Assembly (NCBI GenBank): GCA_963771355.1
Contig: CAVYTA010000007.1
Coordinates: 64,001 to 128,000 of the forward strand
Direction: 5' to 3'
Source of the DNA: an uncultured Candidatus Rokubacteria bacterium
GTDB lineage: Bacteria > Methylomirabilota > Methylomirabilia > Rokubacteriales > CSP1-6
Length of the DNA: 64,000 nt
Shown here: positions 29,006 to 37,332 of the stretch, one piece after another
Position numbering within the stretch: position 1 is the first letter of the stretch
Layout: the number at the start of each line of letters is the position of its first letter
Position numbers and translations under genes: made by a program
The notes under the pieces: generated by a model
The model's input: only the letters and a program-made list of their open reading frames with translations
Database searches by the model: none
Told to the model about the DNA's origin: nothing

Positions 29006-29746
29006 TCAGTCGATGCGGCGGGACTTGACGACGTTCGGCCGAAAGGATGGCTGGGCCATCGTCCCACAGTTGGGCGTCAGGAACTTCACGTCCTTCGTTT
29101 CGTTCGGCTTCAAGACGACGTTCTGGCTCCTCGAGAGTTGATCCTCGGAGCAATCCAATGAGCGAACCGCGCCTTGCCAGGTCTGTGTCTGCACGTTCTT
29201 GATCTGAAACAGCGCGTCCACGTTGGTCTTGTTTTGCGGGTTCAGGCCCCAACGATACCGGTATTGGACTCCCTCGCCGCGAGTCCACTTCGACCACTCG
29301 CCGGTCCGGTACGCAGCGGCCGGCGAGGCCGGGGCGGCCGGCGGGGCGGTTGGTGGCGCGGCTGGCGGGGCGGTCGGCGGGATGGCCGGCGCCGCGGACG
29401 CGCGGCGGGCGGCCGCCGCGCGGTTGTCGGCGGCCGTCTGGGCGCGCGTCTCGGGCGTCACGCAGACCACATCGTCAGGGCGCGCCTCCCTCCACACATA
29501 CCCGCCCACGCAGGTGTTCGGCCCGTACGCCCCTCCGCCCGGCTGGCGCCGGGCGCCCGCTTGGGCATTGTCCTCGGCGGCTTGCTGGCGGATCGCCGGG
29601 GTGACGCAGACGTGGTCGCCGGGGACGGCCTCGCGCCAGACATAGCCTTGGCGGCAAGCATCCGACGGAGGCGACTGGGCACGGGTGGTGGCGGCAAGAC
29701 CACAAACGAGCCCCGCGACGAGGAGGCCGGCTGTCATTCGGGTCAT
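29006..29746 (-). CDS. secreted protein with two Cys-bridged GYVWREA repeats, Pro/Ala linker and C-terminal beta domain
   Basis: Signal peptide; C.xGYVWREA.P.D.VCVTP..R.Q.A.DN twice; GGAG RBS. Confidence 0.8.
   Translation of the reverse strand: MTRMTAGLLVAGLVCGLAATTRAQSPPSDACRQGYVWREAVPGDHVCVTPAIRQQAAEDNAQAGARRQPGGGAYGPNTCVGGYVWREARPDDVVCVTPETRAQTAADNRAAAARRASAAPAIPPTAPPAAPPTAPPAAPASPAAAYRTGEWSKWTRGEGVQYRYRWGLNPQNKTNVDALFQIKNVQTQTWQGAVRSLDCSEDQLSRSQNVVLKPNETKDVKFLTPNCGTMAQPSFRPNVVKSRRID
29423..29656 (-). repeat. intragenic duplicated 30-aa module
   Basis: Residues 31-60 and 79-108 of the 29006-29746 protein. Confidence 0.8.
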
Positions 29747-29766
29747 GGGTTCTCCGTGAGGAGGCG

Positions 29767-29991
29767 CTACTCGCGAAAGACGACGCGCCAGCCGGTGTCG
29801 CCGATCTCGATGCGCTCGACGCGCACGATGGCGAGCGGCTTCCAGGGTGCGGCGAGCAGCGTCGCGAGCGCGGCGTTCTTCCCCGCATTGGTCGTCTGAG
29901 TGTCGGGCTCGAAGAGCGACGTCTCCACAAACGGGGCCGCCGCCGGGCTCGCCGCCGCCGCGGCCCGCTTCCTCGACCTGGGCTTGCCCAT
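29767..29991 (-). CDS. 74-aa hypothetical protein with basic N-terminus
   Basis: ATG 3 nt after upstream stop, GAGGG RBS, fills the gap in the operon. Confidence 0.6.
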   Translation of the reverse strand: MGKPRSRKRAAAAASPAAAPFVETSLFEPDTQTTNAGKNAALATLLAAPWKPLAIVRVERIEIGDTGWRVVFRE

Positions 29992-29994
29992 CGT

Positions 29995-31512
29995 CTAACC
30001 CTCCACGCCCGCGAGGTACACCTTGGTCCGCGCGAGGAGCGCATCATGCTTCCGGATCTCCTCGTCGAGCGCCTTGAGCGCCGATTCGTTCGCGGCGAGC
30101 TGCTCGCGCAGGTACTTCTCGGCGTCGGGCCCGCGCGTGGGGAAGCCCGCGACCGCCGTCGCCGCATTCGCCTGCGCCCGCTTGATCGCGGCGATCGAGA
30201 CGTAGAGCCGCCCGCGATACGTGGTGACCCGGTCGAAGCCCGCGCCGACGTCGAGCGGCCGGCCGGCCGCCCACACCACCTCGAGCGGGCCGCCGGGGTT
30301 GCGCACCCCGAGGAGGTTGGAGGGATAGGTGGCGGGAACAATCCCGCCGAGCGCGTCGAGCTCGCCGACCAGCCCGCTCGCACCCTGGTCGCCCCGGGCG
30401 GTGAGGGCCTTCAGCGTCTGGTACTCGATGGCCAGGGCCGCCGTCGAGGAGAGCCGCACCCCGAGGTCGCCGCGCAGCGCGGGACTCACGCCGCGCTCCA
30501 GCACCGCATGCGTGGGCATGGGCGGCCCGAGCAGCCCCCCCGGTCCGATGGCCATGTCGAAGCCGAGATAGCCGATCACCAGCGGCCGGGCGAAGTCTTC
30601 GGCCAGGGAGATGCTCCCGGACGAGGCGGAGACCACCTTCACGGTGCCGCCAGGGGCGAGATTGCTCCCGCCCACGCGCTCGAGGGCCTTGGCGATCATG
30701 GTGTTGAGCGCGGCGATATTGCTCGTATACGCCTCCAGGGTGTTCTTCTGCGGATCCGCGCCCGCGTTCGGCACCACGAGGTCCACCGGCTTGGCGGCGC
30801 CGCCGGACAGCGTGGCCCCCGAGCTCTTCGAGGACTGGAGCGAGACGTTGATCCGTCCCGTGATGTAGACGCGTGAGACCACGCGGACGTAGTTGGTGCG
30901 CTGAGGATCGCCGCCGTAGTACTGGAGGAAGGCGCGGTTACCGTCGGCCCAGCGCCGGACGTCGTCGTACAGCGAGATGGTATCCACGCCGTAGGTCCGC
31001 GCTTCCGCGATGGTGATGGTGCCCTGGGTGGCGTCGCCGCCGAGCAGGCTCAGCCCCACCGGGATGCCCTGCACGGGGAGCGCCACGTTGAAGCCGCCGC
31101 CCCGACGCGCGGAGAAGGCATAGGTGGGGAAGCTCGCGTTCGGCGCCAGCGTCCAGGAGGCCGGCTTGCCCGGCTCGAGCCAGTGCTTGGGCAGGGGATG
31201 CTGGGGGTCGCCCGCCTCGAAGGACTGGCGATAGAACGTCTCGTAGCCGCGAGGATCGAGCCGGAAGATGAGGTTGTCGAGCGGGAGGAAGCCACGCTCG
31301 CGATAGGTCTTGGCCTGCTCGTCCACCGTCACCTGGACGAGGAAGATGTCGCCGGGCTGGAGGTCCTCGGTCAGCGGATAGACGGGGACGATCTGGCTCG
31401 CACGGATCACCATGGACCAGTCGCGGGCGACGCGCTGAAGCTCGCGGTCGCTCACCGCCCGCGCACATCCCGATGCCGCCAGCGCCAGCAGGATCCAGAC
31501 GATCACGCGCAT
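29995..31512 (-). CDS. lipoprotein with putative gasdermin-like pore-forming domain and C-terminal extension
   Basis: Lipobox LAASG-C16 and GGAGG RBS are seen directly; the fold is inferred from motif order (YPLTEDLQPGD, YVRVVSRVY, PLVIGY). Confidence 0.6.
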   Translation of the reverse strand: MRVIVWILLALAASGCARAVSDRELQRVARDWSMVIRASQIVPVYPLTEDLQPGDIFLVQVTVDEQAKTYRERGFLPLDNLIFRLDPRGYETFYRQSFEAGDPQHPLPKHWLEPGKPASWTLAPNASFPTYAFSARRGGGFNVALPVQGIPVGLSLLGGDATQGTITIAEARTYGVDTISLYDDVRRWADGNRAFLQYYGGDPQRTNYVRVVSRVYITGRINVSLQSSKSSGATLSGGAAKPVDLVVPNAGADPQKNTLEAYTSNIAALNTMIAKALERVGGSNLAPGGTVKVVSASSGSISLAEDFARPLVIGYLGFDMAIGPGGLLGPPMPTHAVLERGVSPALRGDLGVRLSSTAALAIEYQTLKALTARGDQGASGLVGELDALGGIVPATYPSNLLGVRNPGGPLEVVWAAGRPLDVGAGFDRVTTYRGRLYVSIAAIKRAQANAATAVAGFPTRGPDAEKYLREQLAANESALKALDEEIRKHDALLARTKVYLAGVEG

Positions 31513-31543
31513 GCGTCTCTCCTCCCGCGCGCTTGCACGCGCT

Positions 31544-32326
31544 TCAGGTCCCGCCCACCGCTCGCTCGCGCAGCGCCTTCACCATGCCCGCGTCGAAGGC
31601 CTCGCGCACGGGCAGCCCCTCGCGCTCCTGGAACATGCGGAGCGCGGAGCGTGTGAATCGCCCCACCATGCCGTCCACCGGCCCCGGGTTGTAGTCGAGG
31701 TAGACGAGATAGGCCTGGATGGCCCGCACATTGAGGTCCGGCAACGCGCCCGTCACGTACTTCTGCTGCGCGGCGCGCAGCCGCTCGTCGTAGGAGTTCT
31801 TGGCGTAAGCCGGACCATTGTAGGCGGCGGCGAAGGCCGGCCAGTTGTGCGCGCGTAGATGCTTGTCGGCGCCGATCGACGCGATGAAGCGCGCCATGCC
31901 TTCGAGCTGGGCGTTCTCCGACTCCACGAACGCGGCGACCATGGGCTCCACGTCCGGGAATCCCGCCGCCTTGAAGTTCTCCCCCATCACCTGCCCCAGC
32001 CCCCACGAGGCGCTCCGGAGCGCCGCCGCGCGGTCGAGCTTCACCGCCTGCCCCAGCCGATCGTACTCGCGCGTCCCGCCGCTATACCCGCCCCACTGCT
32101 TGTTGCTGATGTCCGGGGCCTGCACGTCGAACTTCCGCTTGGTCAGGCGGCTGAAGTAGTGGCGCTCGAAGAGGATGAGCGGCCGGCGATCGGCCAGGAA
32201 GCCGCAGCCGCGCGTCTCCACGGTGAGGACGGCCCAGAGCTCGGCGGCATGCACGTGGAGCGTATCGCAGGCCGCGGCGATCCCGCCGGCATCGAGCACC
32301 AGGCCCGGTCCTTGAAATGCCGCCAT
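31544..32326 (-). CDS. N-acetylmuramidase (DUF3380) with C-terminal peptidoglycan-binding domain
   Basis: AVLTVETRG, ILFERHYF, SASWGLGQVMGEN, YNGPAY; GPVDGMVGRFTRSALRMFQ; no signal peptide. Confidence 0.9.
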   Translation of the reverse strand: MAAFQGPGLVLDAGGIAAACDTLHVHAAELWAVLTVETRGCGFLADRRPLILFERHYFSRLTKRKFDVQAPDISNKQWGGYSGGTREYDRLGQAVKLDRAAALRSASWGLGQVMGENFKAAGFPDVEPMVAAFVESENAQLEGMARFIASIGADKHLRAHNWPAFAAAYNGPAYAKNSYDERLRAAQQKYVTGALPDLNVRAIQAYLVYLDYNPGPVDGMVGRFTRSALRMFQEREGLPVREAFDAGMVKALRERAVGGT

Positions 32327-32453
32327 GACTTACCGCGCGGAGGATGTCGACAACGGCCGGCGGTGGCGATCGGGGAAGGGCATGGCGGGACCAGTCTTGA
32401 TTGATACGGGGCCACTTGGCAAGAATTCTCTGCCCGTTGATCGAACCGGTCCC

Positions 32454-32482
32454 TTGACGGTGCCGTGCTCCGCGGCTAGCAT
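32454..32482 (+). promoter_or_regulatory. sigma70 promoter, near-leaderless transcript
   Basis: TTGACG-N17-TAGCAT, 8 nt before ATG 32491. Confidence 0.65.
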
Positions 32483-32490
32483 CGTGACGG

Positions 32491-33738
32491 ATGATCTCGC
32501 AACTGCTCAAGATTCTGCGGGAATCGATCAAAGCGGTGCCGGCGATGAAGTATGCGCTCGCCGTGGCGGGAATCCTGGCCGTGGTGGCGATGGTGGGCGC
32601 CTTCAAGATATCGCCGTCGATGGCGGTGTTCGGCGCCGTCATCACCCTCGTCCTGATGGTGGCGATGGTGATCTTCGCGCGGCTCACCACCACGGCCTCG
32701 CGGCATTTTTTTCTCCCCGTCACGATCATGATGTGGGCATTCCTCGTCATCACGGTGGCGACCGCCTTCCTGTTGTTCACCTCGGCCTTCTTTCAGTGGC
32801 CGCGTGGCCTGCGCGAGCTGATCGGTCCTCCGGTGGCGGCCGTCCCGGCAGCAGGGGTCCCCCACGAGGACACCGGCCCGCTGGTCGCCGCCGCGCAGAG
32901 GCAACGGGAGAACCGCGACTATACCGGCGCCTGGAGCGCCATCACCCGCGCGGTCGCCGGCGCGCCCGGCTCGAAAGCGGCGCGCGAGGAGCAGACGCAG
33001 ATTGCGATGGCGTGGATCCGCGACATGCGGGTCACCGCCCCGGCGACCTTCACGAGCACGGTGATGCCGTTGTCGGAGCACCTGAACCTGGCTTTGGCGA
33101 CGGCGACGGGACCGCTCGCGGCCGACATCCGCGCTCACCTGGGGCACGCGAACTTTCTACGCCACCGGGAAGGCGCCCGTGACCTCAAGATCGCGGAGGA
33201 ATACGCCGCCGCGGTCGCGCTCGACGCCGCCAATCCCTTCGCGCAGGCCATGTGGGGGCACTGGCTCGCCGTTCAGCACCGGCCACTGGAGGAGTTGAAG
33301 GAGCGATTCCGCATCGCCCTCACGTCCGGACGGGAGCGCGCCTATGTGCAGCGAACCCGGCTCGCCGCTCTCAAATGGCACGGGACGCACGAGGCAGACG
33401 TCGAGCGGGTGCGAGTCGCCGATGAGATGCGGCGCAATAACGAGCCAGCCGAGATGGCGTCACGGCTCGAGATCGTCCGGGACGCCTACCCGCGCGGGCC
33501 CACGGGCGCCGAACCGGCGATGCTGGCCGCCTTGCCCGCGGCCGACCACCTCGCGACGTTTCGCTGGCTAGTCGAGGGCCGCGATCTGAGCAACTCCCCG
33601 ATCGAATCCTATTACCTCGCGCGGCTGACGGAAGCGGCCGGGGATTGTGCGGGCGCGGCCACGCTCTATCGCCCGCTCCTCAGCCTCAACTCGACCTTCG
33701 AGGAGAAAATCAAGGCTGGCCTCGCGCGTTGTGAGTAG
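32491..33738 (+). CDS. membrane protein, 3 N-terminal TM helices plus helical TPR-like domain
   Basis: Three hydrophobic segments in residues ~20-105; TPR-like segments (YTGAWSAITRAVAGAP, YAAAVALDAANP). Confidence 0.75.
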   Translation: MISQLLKILRESIKAVPAMKYALAVAGILAVVAMVGAFKISPSMAVFGAVITLVLMVAMVIFARLTTTASRHFFLPVTIMMWAFLVITVATAFLLFTSAFFQWPRGLRELIGPPVAAVPAAGVPHEDTGPLVAAAQRQRENRDYTGAWSAITRAVAGAPGSKAAREEQTQIAMAWIRDMRVTAPATFTSTVMPLSEHLNLALATATGPLAADIRAHLGHANFLRHREGARDLKIAEEYAAAVALDAANPFAQAMWGHWLAVQHRPLEELKERFRIALTSGRERAYVQRTRLAALKWHGTHEADVERVRVADEMRRNNEPAEMASRLEIVRDAYPRGPTGAEPAMLAALPAADHLATFRWLVEGRDLSNSPIESYYLARLTEAAGDCAGAATLYRPLLSLNSTFEEKIKAGLARCE

Positions 33739-33779
33739 CCAGGTCCTCGGGCCCGCGCGGTAGCCGAAGGGAGAACAGG

Positions 33780-35933
33780 ATGGCCAGGAAGAAGGTCGCG
33801 AGACGCTCCCGAACTTCACGATCGACCCGGGCTTCCGAGCGGTCTCCGAAGACGACCCGGCCGTCGAGCATTGCCCGGCGGGAGCCCGAGCGCGCCCGCG
33901 GCGCCGGCGCCAAGATGGGGCGCACGCTCGATGCGTTCCCCGACCGGGTGGATATCCGCGACTGGTTTTACCAGCCACCGCTCATCGCCCTGCCCGACCA
34001 GGTGGTGAGCTGCGACCTGGTTCCCACCGTCCTCGACCAGGGGCAGGAGGGGGCCTGCACCGGGTATGCGCTGGCTGCGGTGGTCAACTTCCACCTCTTC
34101 CATCGCCGGATCCGGCGGACGGTCAGCCCGCGCATGCTCTACGACATGGCGCGCCGGTACGACGAGTGGCCCGGCGAGAAGTACGAGGGCTCGTCGGCCC
34201 GCGGCGCGATGAAGGGCTGGGTGTCGCACGGCGTCTGCAATGAAGTCTCGTGGCCGGCCACGCTTCACGGCGCCCAGTTCCTCACGCCCGCGCTGGCAAC
34301 GGAAGCGCAGGAAACACCCGGCGGCGCCTACTACCGCGTCATGCACCGGCAGATCCGCGACATGCACGCTGCGCTGGCGGAGGTGGGCATTCTCTACGTC
34401 ACGCTCATGGTGCACGAGGGCTGGAACGCGCCGGGGCCCACGACGGTGACGGTGGACTACGTCGAGTCGGGCAACTCCAAGAAGCTCACCCTTCCGGTGA
34501 TCCGACGCGCGGGGCGCGCCGACGGCGGGCACGCCGTGGCCATCGTCGGCTACACCCGCGACGGGTTCATCATCCAGAATTCCTGGGGCCCCGACTGGGG
34601 CGCGCGGGGGTTCGCGCTGCTTCCGTACGAGGATTTCATGCTGCACTCCACCGACGTGTGGGTCGCCCAGCTCGGTGTCCCCGTGAAGATGACCGGATGG
34701 ACGGAGGAGGGCGGCGCGGACACCACCGCCGGCCTGCATCGGGCCATGCAGGCCATTCCGCTCGCCGATATCCGCCCGTACGTGGTGGACATCGGCAACA
34801 ACGGCGAGCTGTCGGACTCCGGCTCCTATTGGACCACCACCGCGGACCTCGACCGGCTCTTCAACGAGATCATCCCCGAGCGGACCCAGACGTGGGCCCG
34901 GCGCCGGGTGATGCTGTACCTGCACGGCGGCCTCAACAACGAGCGGGCGGTGGCGGAGCGCATCGTGGCCTTCCGGGATGTGTTCCTCGAGAACGAGATC
35001 TACCCCGTCCACATCATGTGGGAGTCCGGCGTGTGGGAATCGCTGAGCGGGCTCATCGAGGACCTCTTCACCGACGTGGACGAGCGGGCGGGGGCGGTGG
35101 GGGACTGGCTCCGCGGCCTGCGGGACGGGATGGTCGAGGCCAAGGACCGCTCTCTCGAGCTCACCGCCGCCTTGCCCGGTGGGGCGCTCTGGGGCGAGAT
35201 GAAGGAGAACGCCAAGCTGGCCTCGGCGCAGCCGGAGCGCAAGGGCGGGATGCAGCTCATCGCCCAGCACGCGCAGAAGGCGCTCGGCGACGTGGACGAG
35301 GCCGAGCGCAAGAAGTGGGAGCTGCACGTGGTGGGGCACAGCGCCGGGAGCATCTTCGCGGCGCACGCGTTGCGCCACCTCATCGACCTCAAGGTGACGC
35401 TCAAGACCGTGCAGTTCATGGCGCCCGCCATCACCGTGAAGGCGTTCAAGGAGCTCGTGCTGCCGCACGTCAAGTCGGGGGACTGCCCGTCGCCGACCCT
35501 CTACATCCTCAGCGACAGCGGGGAGCTCGACGACGAGGTGGGGCCCTACGGCAAGTCGCTGCTCTACCTGGTGAGCAATGCGTTCGAGGAGAGACGGGGC
35601 ACCCCCATCCTGGGGATGGAGAAGTTCCTGGTCGGCCCCGACGCCGATCCGGAAACGGCCAAGCTGTACCGACCGGGTGGCGCCGGCCATCTGGTCGTGG
35701 CCGGCAAGGGGAAGGATCCGGCCGGACAAAGCGCGAGCGAGACCCACGGCGGCTTCGACAACGATCCCCGGACGCTGAACTCGGTGATGTATCAGATCCT
35801 AGGCGGCCCGCCGAAGCGGCAGTTCCAGGTTCGCGATCTCCAGTTCGAGGACACGAAGGACGCCGCCGCCGGCCGGGGCCGGCGCGCCGGCGCTGCCGCC
35901 AACGGCTGGGGAGCGCACTCGCGGCGAGGCTGA
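33780..35933 (+). CDS. papain-like C1 cysteine peptidase fused to alpha/beta-hydrolase domain
   Basis: DQGQEGACTG, GGHAVAIVGY, IQNSWG; LYLHGGLN, VVGHSAG, HGGFDND. Confidence 0.88.
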   Translation: MARKKVARRSRTSRSTRASERSPKTTRPSSIARREPERARGAGAKMGRTLDAFPDRVDIRDWFYQPPLIALPDQVVSCDLVPTVLDQGQEGACTGYALAAVVNFHLFHRRIRRTVSPRMLYDMARRYDEWPGEKYEGSSARGAMKGWVSHGVCNEVSWPATLHGAQFLTPALATEAQETPGGAYYRVMHRQIRDMHAALAEVGILYVTLMVHEGWNAPGPTTVTVDYVESGNSKKLTLPVIRRAGRADGGHAVAIVGYTRDGFIIQNSWGPDWGARGFALLPYEDFMLHSTDVWVAQLGVPVKMTGWTEEGGADTTAGLHRAMQAIPLADIRPYVVDIGNNGELSDSGSYWTTTADLDRLFNEIIPERTQTWARRRVMLYLHGGLNNERAVAERIVAFRDVFLENEIYPVHIMWESGVWESLSGLIEDLFTDVDERAGAVGDWLRGLRDGMVEAKDRSLELTAALPGGALWGEMKENAKLASAQPERKGGMQLIAQHAQKALGDVDEAERKKWELHVVGHSAGSIFAAHALRHLIDLKVTLKTVQFMAPAITVKAFKELVLPHVKSGDCPSPTLYILSDSGELDDEVGPYGKSLLYLVSNAFEERRGTPILGMEKFLVGPDADPETAKLYRPGGAGHLVVAGKGKDPAGQSASETHGGFDNDPRTLNSVMYQILGGPPKRQFQVRDLQFEDTKDAAAGRGRRAGAAANGWGAHSRRG

Positions 35934-36002
35934 GGCGGTGAGGCTGTCCGTGTCTCGGGTATGATGTTCCCTCATCACCAAACCCGACATCAGGAGGACG
36001 AC

Positions 36003-36579
36003 ATGGCCGACAATCCGCATATCCTCGGCGACAAGGTCCGCATCGCTCGAGGATGAGTTCTTCCGGAAGGAGGACCAGCGCGCCATGCAGCAGCTCCGCG
36101 AGCTCCGCGAGAAAGCGGCCTCCCGCGAAGCGCTCACGAAGGTCTCCGGGATCAAGAACGAGGCCATCCTCGACAAGCTGATCCAGCTGGGCATCCGGGC
36201 CGAGGTCCTCGCGGCGCTCGCCCTCGCGCCGCTGGTCGAGGTGGCGTGGGCGGACGGCTCGCTCGATGAGCGGGAGCGGCGGGAGATCCTCGGGCGTGCC
36301 GAGAAGTCCGGCATTGCCCCGGGCTCGCCGGGCCATGCCATCCTCCAGAGCTGGCTCGAGCGGAAACCCGAGCCGAAACTGCTCACGGCGTGGATCCACA
36401 TGGTGGAGGGACTCTGCGAGCATATGACCCCGGAGCAGGTCGGGGCCCTGCGCGCCGGGCTGATCGAGCGTGCCCAGGCCATCGCGAGCGCGAGCGGCGG
36501 CGTCCTCGGCATTGGCAAGGTCTCGGCGGCGGAGGCCGACATGATTCAGCGGCTCGAGTCTGCCTTCGGCCGGACGTAA
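36003..36579 (+). CDS. TerB-like helical hypothetical protein (frameshift near 36040)
   Basis: AGGAGG RBS + MADNPHILGDKVR then frame change to SLEDEFFRKEDQ...PLVEVAWADGSLDERERREIL. Confidence 0.7.
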
Positions 36580-36610: not shown

Positions 36611-37332
36611 TCACCGCGGCGGATGACGCACTCCGGGTGGGCGGGACCTTGTCCACCCACTCCGCGGCGCGCGCGTCTGATCCGCCGACCGAGCGGCCGC
36701 GTCTGAGCCATGACGTTGCCGGCGCTGACCGCGTACAGGGAGGTGATCGGCAGTCCGGCCGAACGCAGCGCCCTCGCCGTCCAGGTGTTGCACGTCTTCA
36801 GCAGGGAGTATTTCTCGCGCGCCGCGTAGAAGCGGCTGTTCGCGTAGTGGCCCCGGCCGGAGATCCATTGTCCTGCCCGAATCGTCCTTCGCGTAGGCGT
36901 CCGCGATGAAGGCGGCGAGCCCCCGGAACCCGCGAGCGGAGACGAGGATCTCGACGATCTCGCGCTGAGCGGAAGAACTGCTGGACAGGACCGTCGAATC
37001 CCACGATGTGCAGGACGCCCGGGGAGGGCCAGAGTACTGCCTTCAGCGCCAGCCCCGGTGTGCCTTCTGGGGCCATATAGAACTCCCTGGCGCCCCAGCC
37101 AACTCTCCAGGTACTCGGAGTCCGCGACCTCAGCATGTTCAGCCCAGACACCTTCAGGAATGTCAGCTCGCCGGACTGCGATGCCGGTGTGCCATCCGTG
37201 GTTGATGACATATATCGCCTTGACGGGTTCGGCCGGCCCGGGCGGATAGAGCCCGTCGATGGATCTGGCGCAGCCCACAGGCCCGGTGCTGAACACCACC
37301 AGCCCGACGAGGGCAACCTGGAGGGCGTTCAT
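36611..37332 (-). pseudogene. DUF2459-family protein with several frameshifts; 3' end approximate
   Basis: NHGWHTGI, VGWGAREFY, FYAAREKYSLLKTCNTW pieces in different frames; breaks near 37103, 36965, 36858. Confidence 0.7.

Follow-up and report, generated by a model that had tools for sequence, protein, structure and literature searches.

The 64,000-nucleotide (nt) stretch of DNA analysed here, referred to below as the window, comes from an uncultured Candidatus Rokubacteria bacterium (contig CAVYTA010000007.1, positions 64,001 to 128,000), and the locus considered lies at 29006–36579 within it, where a preliminary description made from the letters alone had seen a candidate system for envelope attack or lysis. 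All seven open reading frames (ORFs) listed in that description are borne out, as are their strands and the divergent gap of 164 nt (32327–32490) between the two sets; genuine as the seven genes are, they do not make up one conserved system. The main subject of what follows is a pair of adjacent minus-strand genes at this locus, encoding a lipoprotein with a predicted gasdermin fold and a small partner protein that carries no signal. The parts of this pair are the following (lengths in amino acids, aa).

29995..31512, minus strand: lipoprotein of predicted gasdermin fold, 505 aa, the core gene
31465..31512, minus strand: predicted Sec/SPII signal peptide with lipobox Cys16 (from sequence; LAASG-C16)
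30496..31440, minus strand: gasdermin-like domain, residues 25–339 (from the alignment with 7n50)
31009..31122, minus strand: predicted membrane finger 1, residues 131–168 (alternating hydrophobic and polar columns)
30598..30858, minus strand: predicted membrane finger 2, residues 219–305, with a helical insert (~239–286) at the predicted tip
29998..30465, minus strand: exchangeable helical C-terminal tail, type A, residues 350–505
29767..29991, minus strand: small signal-less partner protein, 74 aa, type A

Family, predicted fold and export signal of the lipoprotein

The lipoprotein belongs to a family without annotation that spans at least seven phyla, with hosts in Methylomirabilota, Planctomycetota, Acidobacteriota, Verrucomicrobiota, Nitrospirota and others, and for which one database yielded 880 homologs and another 914 clusters at 50% identity. 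It has no match above cut-off in Pfam, NCBIfam, PADLOC or PHROGs, sequence searches against the PDB returned only matches with E of at least 0.25, and a feature search of the Atlas gave unnamed clusters, with Trypco2 (0.82) and bacterial gasdermin (bGSDM; 0.79) as leads only. Among viral contigs, none of 131 pattern matches was confirmed as a relative.

What places the protein is its predicted structure. The AlphaFold model (143 sequences) has a predicted local distance difference test score (pLDDT) of 89.3 and a predicted template-modelling score (pTM) of 0.80, and both Foldseek and VIA-align rank bacterial gasdermins first, which agrees with the gasdermin-like lipoprotein of the preliminary description. 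The top Foldseek matches are 7n50, 7n52 and 7n51 (E 1.1e-5 for 7n50, with a template-modelling score by target of only 0.46). In VIA-align the match to 7n50 has Z 10.7 and a root-mean-square deviation of 4.4 over 207 aligned residues (model 25–339 against chain 2–250), and the top ten rows are all gasdermins, followed by cholesterol-dependent cytolysins (CDCs) at Z about 6; 7n50 ranks first among 48,161 chains. There is also no MACPF/CDC match in Pfam. The likeness to gasdermins is at the level of fold only (11–13% identity), and it is by fold, in a model, that the lipoprotein is predicted to belong to the gasdermin structural superfamily.

The two predicted membrane fingers were assigned according to what we take to be the gasdermin topology. 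In finger 1 the even/odd mean hydropathies of the two strands are -1.13/1.94 and 2.21/-0.34, while in finger 2, which has a helix at 254–280, they are -1.26/1.23 and, more weakly, -0.49/0.91; the even/odd difference exceeds the 95th percentile of the background (2.41) in three of these four strands, the fourth being weaker. The insert at the tip of finger 2 is longer by ~125–175 aa in 12 of 186 homologs (P0144, P0154, P0155, P0158, P0161, P0166, P0167, P0175, P0176, P0178, P0185 and P0199), where it forms a long charged helical stretch that resembles a coiled coil and may be long enough to cross a periplasm. A distant homolog of 622 aa (L095:3046-4914) has a lipobox-like signal and a long helical insert in its N-terminal half and carries no tail; the type-B search of its genome detected no partner type.

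The export signal is conserved. Once 34 of 264 homologs had been excluded, being truncated or without the anchor motif, a lipobox was found by script in 217 of the 230 with an intact N-terminus, and in 12 of the 13 failures the Cys is visible by eye. A twin-arginine-like motif occurs in 7 of 218. By the rule established for E. coli, a residue other than Asp at position +2 points to the outer membrane; Asp is found there in only 10 of the 217 lipobox homologs, which by this rule suggests the outer membrane, and lolA is present in the genome. On this sequence evidence the lipoprotein is predicted to be exported and lipid-anchored. The possibility that the lipobox Cys is the counterpart of the palmitoylated Cys3/Cys4 of bGSDM is not supported: model residues 25–27 align to residue 2 of the bGSDM chain, and the conserved Cys16 lies ~10 residues before the position aligned with the bGSDM start.

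Tails, partner proteins and the linked muramidase

Beyond residue 340 the homologs have helical tails that are unrelated to one another, and it is with these tails that the small downstream genes correspond. In a sample consisting of the best 80 of 213 GTDB loci, 6 ended too soon to be counted; in the other 74 a simple gene caller found a same-strand ORF of no more than 130 aa within 200 nt downstream at 68, compared with 25 of 372 other long genes. Inspection by hand shows the partner present at 4 of the 6 misses; at L005 the caller took the wrong ORF, the true partner lying just behind it, and its picks at L042 and L079 are doubtful, so that the corrected count is about 70 of 74. The 74-aa ORF, which had been listed correctly in the preliminary description and given no role there, thus turns out to be the key partner. 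Such partners are 40–125 aa long and can be sorted into types, two of them large and several small; they have no hydrophobic signal (1 of 65 reaches a hydropathy of 1.6), none of the 66 scanned has a Pfam match, and no fusion of partner to lipoprotein occurs among 264 homologs. No homology between types A and B could be detected (hhalign probability 0.1). The partner in the window is predicted to have a beta-alpha-beta-beta fold over residues 23–73 behind a basic N-terminus of low complexity (pLDDT 86.6), for which there is no significant Foldseek match, a best VIA-align Z of 4.8 and no Atlas match; a likeness to DUF4177 or dodecin is our assumption and is unconfirmed.

Type-A partners pair with a tail of 120–185 aa, type-B partners with one of 67–88 aa, and types D, E and G each with a tail of their own. 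A profile of tail A matches every one of the 27 type-A rows at E < 1e-20 and reaches no E below 0.048 with any other row, a profile of tail B matches all 31 type-B rows, and the two profiles do not cross-match; as the members of a profile score their own profile by construction, the real tests are those made out of sample. Scanning metagenomes with partner A yielded 37 loci, of which 31 have tail A directly upstream, joined in 26 to a gasdermin body and in 2 to another body, with 3 contigs too short to include the body; the others include two spurious matches (L135, L136) and three partial remnants (L125, L129, L134). Partner B occurs in 8 of 151 genomes of one class, six times behind a gasdermin lipoprotein and twice behind unrelated predicted lipoproteins, which themselves end in tail B (E 1.8e-9 and 2.1e-13). 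In 301 genomes of a Planctomycetota sample all four partner-A matches follow tail A, one of them on a non-gasdermin body, and in 401 genomes of Planctomycetota all four partner-B matches (L137–L140) follow tail B on a gasdermin body. In 401 genomes of a Verrucomicrobiota sample the two strong partner-B matches are both orphans, and 3 of the 6 matches look spurious.

At L117:726-968, L141 and L142 the partner gene is an orphan, no gene that bears a tail lying upstream of it in the retrieved sequence. The three partial remnants (L125:485-577, L129:1141-1218 and L134:123-215) are decayed C-terminal halves of a type-A partner that lie directly behind two helical proteins, as though a displaced cassette had left them there.

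Three groups can be told apart among the non-gasdermin bodies, one with tail A (L099, L118 and L122) and two with tail B (L093 and L094), and none matches a profile of the gasdermin domain. Direct searches for the tails on longer proteins were insensitive, yielding 14 and 18 matches, among which P0274 (the L093 protein) has no gasdermin domain. These bodies lie at L093:3763-5102, L094:3729-4966, L122:2381-3680, L118:3-1013 and, on the minus strand, L099; that of L094 is glycine-rich and helical, while another has short beta-strand motifs and in L122 is preceded by two more small lipoprotein-like genes. The three unannotated lipoprotein families, which share tails and partner genes with the gasdermin family, are candidate pore formers.

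The gasdermin-domain tree points the same way. Ten labels for tail and partner need 19 changes on it (minimum 9, shuffled mean 35), and type A is rejected as a single clade by the approximately unbiased (AU) test (p-AU 5.2e-6), bearing in mind that these are quick trees and that the one used for the AU test omits seven long-branch or untyped rows. Since kin share labels, the tree shows exchange rather than co-evolution as such. One case is L006, whose lipoprotein is 64% identical to that of the window over residues 3–342, yet has a different tail and a different partner. In the comparison with L001, identity is 95% for the gasdermin domain but 62% for the tail and 70% for the partner, a sign that the C-terminal end changes faster. 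Type A may be ancestral, and repeated joint replacement of tail and partner is needed even so. Taken at the level of sequence, the pattern indicates that tail and partner are exchanged together, both between gasdermin bodies and onto unrelated lipoproteins.

A complex of the two is also predicted. Modelled together, the mature lipoprotein and its partner give a score of 0.86, against 0.01 for the best of three controls; 116 of 157 solved pairs reach the mark for such scores, as do 2 of 215 mismatched pairs, figures that are rough for the alignments used. At least 95% of the contacts are common to the runs, with a partner pLDDT of at least 82, and all confident contacts fall within tail residues 354–445, none in the gasdermin domain. 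No solved structure resembling the tail or the partner was found, so that recall of a known complex is unlikely. The partner is accordingly predicted by these models to bind the tail.

In this genus the pair has a third member:

31544..32326, minus strand: signal-less N-acetylmuramidase (PF11860) with PG_binding_1, an endolysin-like accessory gene

The muramidase assignment in the preliminary description holds (PF11860 at E 1e-57, 195.6 bits against a cut-off of 22.3; PHROG endolysin at E 1.5e-71), as does the lack of a signal, since there is no hydrophobic segment. Of 101 related genomes, the same six have muramidase, lipoprotein and partner side by side, the muramidase having one further, more distant match. 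The cassette is kept in 5 of 7 sister genomes and in none of 93 other relatives, and DNA likeness to the sister loci forms a single block, 29761–32340 (2.6 kb). The muramidase is linked to the pair only in this genus: homologs were found by tblastn in four of the 80 loci. Wall hydrolases lie near three of the 76 loci outside it (M23 at L005; Amidase_2 at L040, 4 nt after the partner; GH19 at L057), a count for which there is no baseline of enrichment. Elsewhere the lipoprotein is found in 7 of 151 genomes of one class, and several Thermoanaerobaculia genomes hold it at a shared position. The closest named loci are from Methylomirabilota (Rokubacteria), at 81–85% identity. One contig labelled Verrucomicrobiia (L003) has a cassette and flanks that match Methylomirabilota loci and the genome of the window, with the same gene length and muramidase identity as in the sister genome G001.

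Known systems and possible functions

The nearest structural relatives are bacterial gasdermins, which in the available text of Johnson et al. (bioRxiv 10.1101/2021.06.07.447441) are suicide effectors with a protease neighbour in 43 of 50 cases. The modelled lipoprotein has in common with bGSDM (7N50, 7N51, 7N52) the fold over residues 25–339 and two amphipathic fingers, and a lipid-modified N-terminal cysteine is predicted in both. However, it is a predicted exported protein of 400–700 aa whereas bGSDM is a cytoplasmic one of ~250 aa, it ends in a helical tail of ~65–180 aa in place of a short C-terminal peptide (to which, judging from alignment ranges only, residues near 330–341 may correspond), and unlike bGSDM it has a fingertip insert and a cognate small partner gene; there is no match at the sequence level. 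A caspase, CHAT or trypsin protease adjoins it at only 3 of 80 loci, compared with the 43 of 50 given for bGSDM in that text. With its predicted export, no dedicated protease and a large tail, it is not a canonical bacterial gasdermin system.

Pyroptolysins (bioRxiv 10.64898/2026.10.05.756811; first noted in PMC10153256) come closer in one respect: as far as the available text of those reports goes, they have a gasdermin fold that acts from outside the cell and, like the present family, no protease in the operon. They are described there as mostly solitary genes with a CDC-like immunoglobulin (Ig) beta-sandwich and with sterol membranes as targets, in text that does not use the word lipoprotein, whereas the present family has a lipobox, a partner gene and, in the model, a helical tail and no Ig beta-sandwich. 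The CDC-like proteins (CDCLs) of Bacteroidota with BcdI (PMC11169675, PMC11952106) are, in the available parts of those papers, pore-forming lipoprotein toxins that come with an immunity gene and are activated by an envelope protease not linked to them. They resemble the present family in bearing an SPII signal on a protein of the giant-pore type; the activating envelope protease is not encoded as a cytoplasmic neighbour, the immunity gene is co-transcribed and the role is antibacterial. Those proteins have the CDC/MACPF fold, usually comprise two components and are matched by an immunity protein that is a 30-kDa surface lipoprotein; for the present family gasdermins outscore CDCs (Z about 6), and the partner is a protein of 40–125 aa without a signal. 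In gene layout the closest parallel is SitA/SitI of myxobacteria (PMC8546572), lipoprotein toxins which, according to the portion of that paper available, have a conserved N-terminal part of ~350 aa and a modular C-terminal domain that is common to non-homologous N-terminal families, together with a cognate immunity gene whose product is not transferred. SitA tails are described there as nucleases, delivered by TraAB outer-membrane exchange, whereas in the present family a pore former is predicted for the N-terminal part and the tails are small helical domains. The family is thus gasdermin-like in fold and polymorphic-toxin-like in gene layout. Gasdermin-like domains without Pfam annotation were reported from clusters of the AlphaFold database (PMC10584675), in available text that mentions no lipoprotein, tail or partner; some members of the family may lie in those clusters, and members could be listed in the supplements of gasdermin or pyroptolysin papers. 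A search of full-text literature, covering few subscription papers and no supplements, found no description of such a family.

The lipoprotein gene combines an export signal and a conserved N-terminal module with an exchangeable C-terminal domain that also occurs on unrelated bodies, and a cognate gene for a cytoplasmic protein follows it. On the precedents of the SitA/SitI layout and the CDCLs, this suggests that the 505-aa and 74-aa genes are a polymorphic lipoprotein toxin and its immunity protein, the toxin having a predicted gasdermin pore domain; this is the reading we favour, and we consider it a little short of probable. The partner would keep the precursor harmless in the cytoplasm and stay behind when the precursor is exported through Sec and lipidated. 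The lipoprotein would reach a neighbouring cell by vesicles, shedding or contact, and there the gasdermin domain would oligomerise into a large beta-barrel pore, perhaps following a cut in the linker near residues 340–350 by an envelope protease of host or target. The pore would kill the target or admit the tail, and cells with the matching partner would survive; in this genus the muramidase may help to release the product of the cassette or to breach the target wall.

There are several points that tell against such a toxin. Its tails are small and helical, with no conserved set of catalytic-looking residues and no toxin-fold match (Pfam gives no match above cut-off, and structure searches give only generic helical matches), and conservation at the interface does not exceed that of the remaining tail (0.29 against 0.34). 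The immunity proteins of unrelated toxins normally differ in fold, and the partners of all types look by eye like one beta-alpha-beta-beta fold. Tail type A is retained by all six carriers in the genus, and no orphan partner A was found in 95 non-carrier relatives, which makes a poor case for a strain-level arms race. The loci are not independent, 14 of the type-B rows being a single Acidobacteriota clade. No delivery machine was identified, with no VipB (the sheath gene of type VI secretion) in a genome that is 99.8% complete, and the long helical insert that is predicted for the tip of finger 2 would be hard to move across a membrane.

Some of these points would be better accommodated if the lipoprotein lay inactive in the envelope of its own cell and the cytoplasmic partner were the key rather than the antidote, an arrangement for self-lysis gated by compartment that we consider unlikely. 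A breach of the inner membrane by phage or toxin would then let partner and muramidase leak into the periplasm, where the one would bind the tail and so open the pore and the other would remove the wall. It would account for the binding of a cytoplasmic protein by an exported one, for a partner fold shared between types and for tails that are not enzymatic, as well as for an endolysin-like muramidase that has moved with the pair as one 2.6-kb block; the wall hydrolases near L005, L040 and L057 fit too, and bacterial gasdermins are suicide effectors in what is available of the report on them. Nevertheless, the low and baseline-free count of wall hydrolases outside the genus, the lack of a PADLOC match and the predominance of housekeeping genes among the neighbours speak against self-lysis, which also needs contact between tail and body, yet the same tail is found on unrelated bodies. 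It could also be that the protein is not toxic at all. CsgG, the curli channel, assembles in the outer membrane of its producer, and a channel or signalling pore of that sort, with the partner as chaperone, cargo or ligand on the tail, would suit the outer-membrane type of lipobox, the retention of the cassette across the genus (5 of 7 sister genomes), the shared position in Thermoanaerobaculia, long coiled-coil inserts that could face outward and, once more, non-enzymatic tails. We think this quite improbable, given the patchy spread among other relatives and within the one class of 151 genomes, the repeated exchange of tail and partner, the lack of a conserved cargo gene and a partner without an export signal. 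What probability remains is left for other mechanisms.

If the toxin–immunity reading is true, the gasdermin fold would be joined to the logic of polymorphic toxins in a candidate weapon of poorly studied soil and aquatic phyla, while if the partner were a trigger the pair would represent a new way of sensing membrane breach. In the available literature gasdermins are described as acting from inside cells, the sterol-targeting pyroptolysins being a recent exception; the present family contributes ~900 sequence clusters of predicted exported lipoproteins with no dedicated protease and a swappable tail with a matched microprotein, and the tail–partner pairs mark out three further lipoprotein families without annotation as similar candidates. 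A more general, and rather doubtful, suggestion is that there is a third form of gasdermin control beside proteolysis and cleavage-free activation, namely spatial separation, in which the pore former would be exported and the microprotein would stay cytoplasmic, with tail and microprotein as an exchangeable plug-in safety catch or trigger on at least four unrelated exported lipoprotein bodies, of which the gasdermin pore would be one.

Other genes of the locus and its assembly

The remaining features are:

32330..32383, minus strand: 17-codon stub of a 434-aa TPR gene, a mark of rearrangement (32337–32424 has an 84% DNA match to the gene start in L001)
29006..29746, minus strand: secreted Cys-repeat protein, 246 aa, a neighbour outside the conserved unit
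32491..33738, plus strand: membrane protein with three transmembrane (TM) segments and a helical C-terminal part, an unlinked neighbour
33780..35933, plus strand: cytoplasmic C1 peptidase fused to an alpha/beta hydrolase, an unlinked neighbour
36003..36579, plus strand: TerB-like gene, true start ATG 36003, an unlinked neighbour

In the preliminary description genes of the locus were combined into a module in which a TM/TPR protein senses, the C1 protease cuts the gasdermin-like protein and the muramidase completes lysis. In its favour, the genes adjoin both here and in an independent strain contig, proteases usually adjoin bacterial gasdermins, and the protease was correctly identified and has its motifs intact (Peptidase_C1 at E 1.6e-7; QG-CTG, GHAV and QNSWG, with GHSAG for the hydrolase). 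However, tblastn found no homolog of the C1 protease, the TM protein, the Cys-repeat protein or the TerB-like protein at any of the 80 loci, in 53 of which at least 4.5 kb of upstream sequence was present. In five sister genomes the nearest C1 homologs, at 43–45% identity, lie on other contigs; one of the five has the TM gene, again on another contig, and none has the Cys-repeat gene, which is seen only in a strain contig that is 99% identical (L100). In the sister genomes a TPR gene of 434 aa precedes the muramidase, and the stub of this different gene in the window implies that the divergent layout is a recent rearrangement, its junction a deletion scar. The three N-terminal hydrophobic segments of the membrane protein agree with what was described, whereas its supposed TPR part gives no Pfam or NCBIfam match at E 0.1, and the conflict that had rightly been flagged, of a protease without a signal and an exported substrate, stands. 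The C1 protease is a chance neighbour with no conserved part in the system, and the module as proposed is very improbable; as regards the broader idea of an envelope-attack set, the muramidase is indeed endolysin-like and inherited together with the lipoprotein in this genus, while the other genes are unlinked.

The neighbourhood comparison that had been recommended, looking for proteases and muramidases beside lipoprotein homologs, gives the 3 and four of 80 loci mentioned above. A Pfam scan of flanking genes covered 73 in the first position upstream and 54 of 67 in the second, together with 60 of 69 in the first position downstream and 8 of 63 in the second; the genes omitted from the first downstream and second upstream positions came from close relatives of scanned loci. 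Most of the scanned genes are housekeeping genes, with lipase or hydrolase genes at several loci. All-against-all clustering of the neighbours, which is noisy from false ORFs, shows lineage-specific synteny only. The protease neighbours are a caspase upstream on the same strand at L033, a divergent caspase together with a CHAT/TPR-S protein at L059, and a trypsin–PLD fusion at L045. The fusion of C1 peptidase to alpha/beta hydrolase (33780–35933) represents an uncharacterised two-enzyme family with a homolog at other sites in all five sisters (L087–L091). The Cys-repeat protein has two repeats of the type CxxGYVWREA and a Pro/Ala linker, with no Pfam match.

As for the assembly itself, GC content is flat across the window (~69%), and an independent soil contig covers 30416–33476 with 13 differences from it, so that the arrangement is not an assembly chimera. 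RNA contigs, which cannot show transcription, cover parts of the locus, one of them bridging the lipoprotein end and the partner (29860–30070). The TerB-like gene, for which Pfam gives a weak match below cut-off, starts earlier than described: near 36042 the window contains an additional base not present in contigs of two other runs, a one-base assembly error, and the true start is 36003. Contigs of other runs likewise lack one base near 36676–36678 and another near 36970, and both the TerB-like gene and the fragmented minus-strand gene beside it (36611–37316, presumably DUF2459-like) are probably intact in reality. A TerB-like paralog on contig C6 is frameshifted as well.

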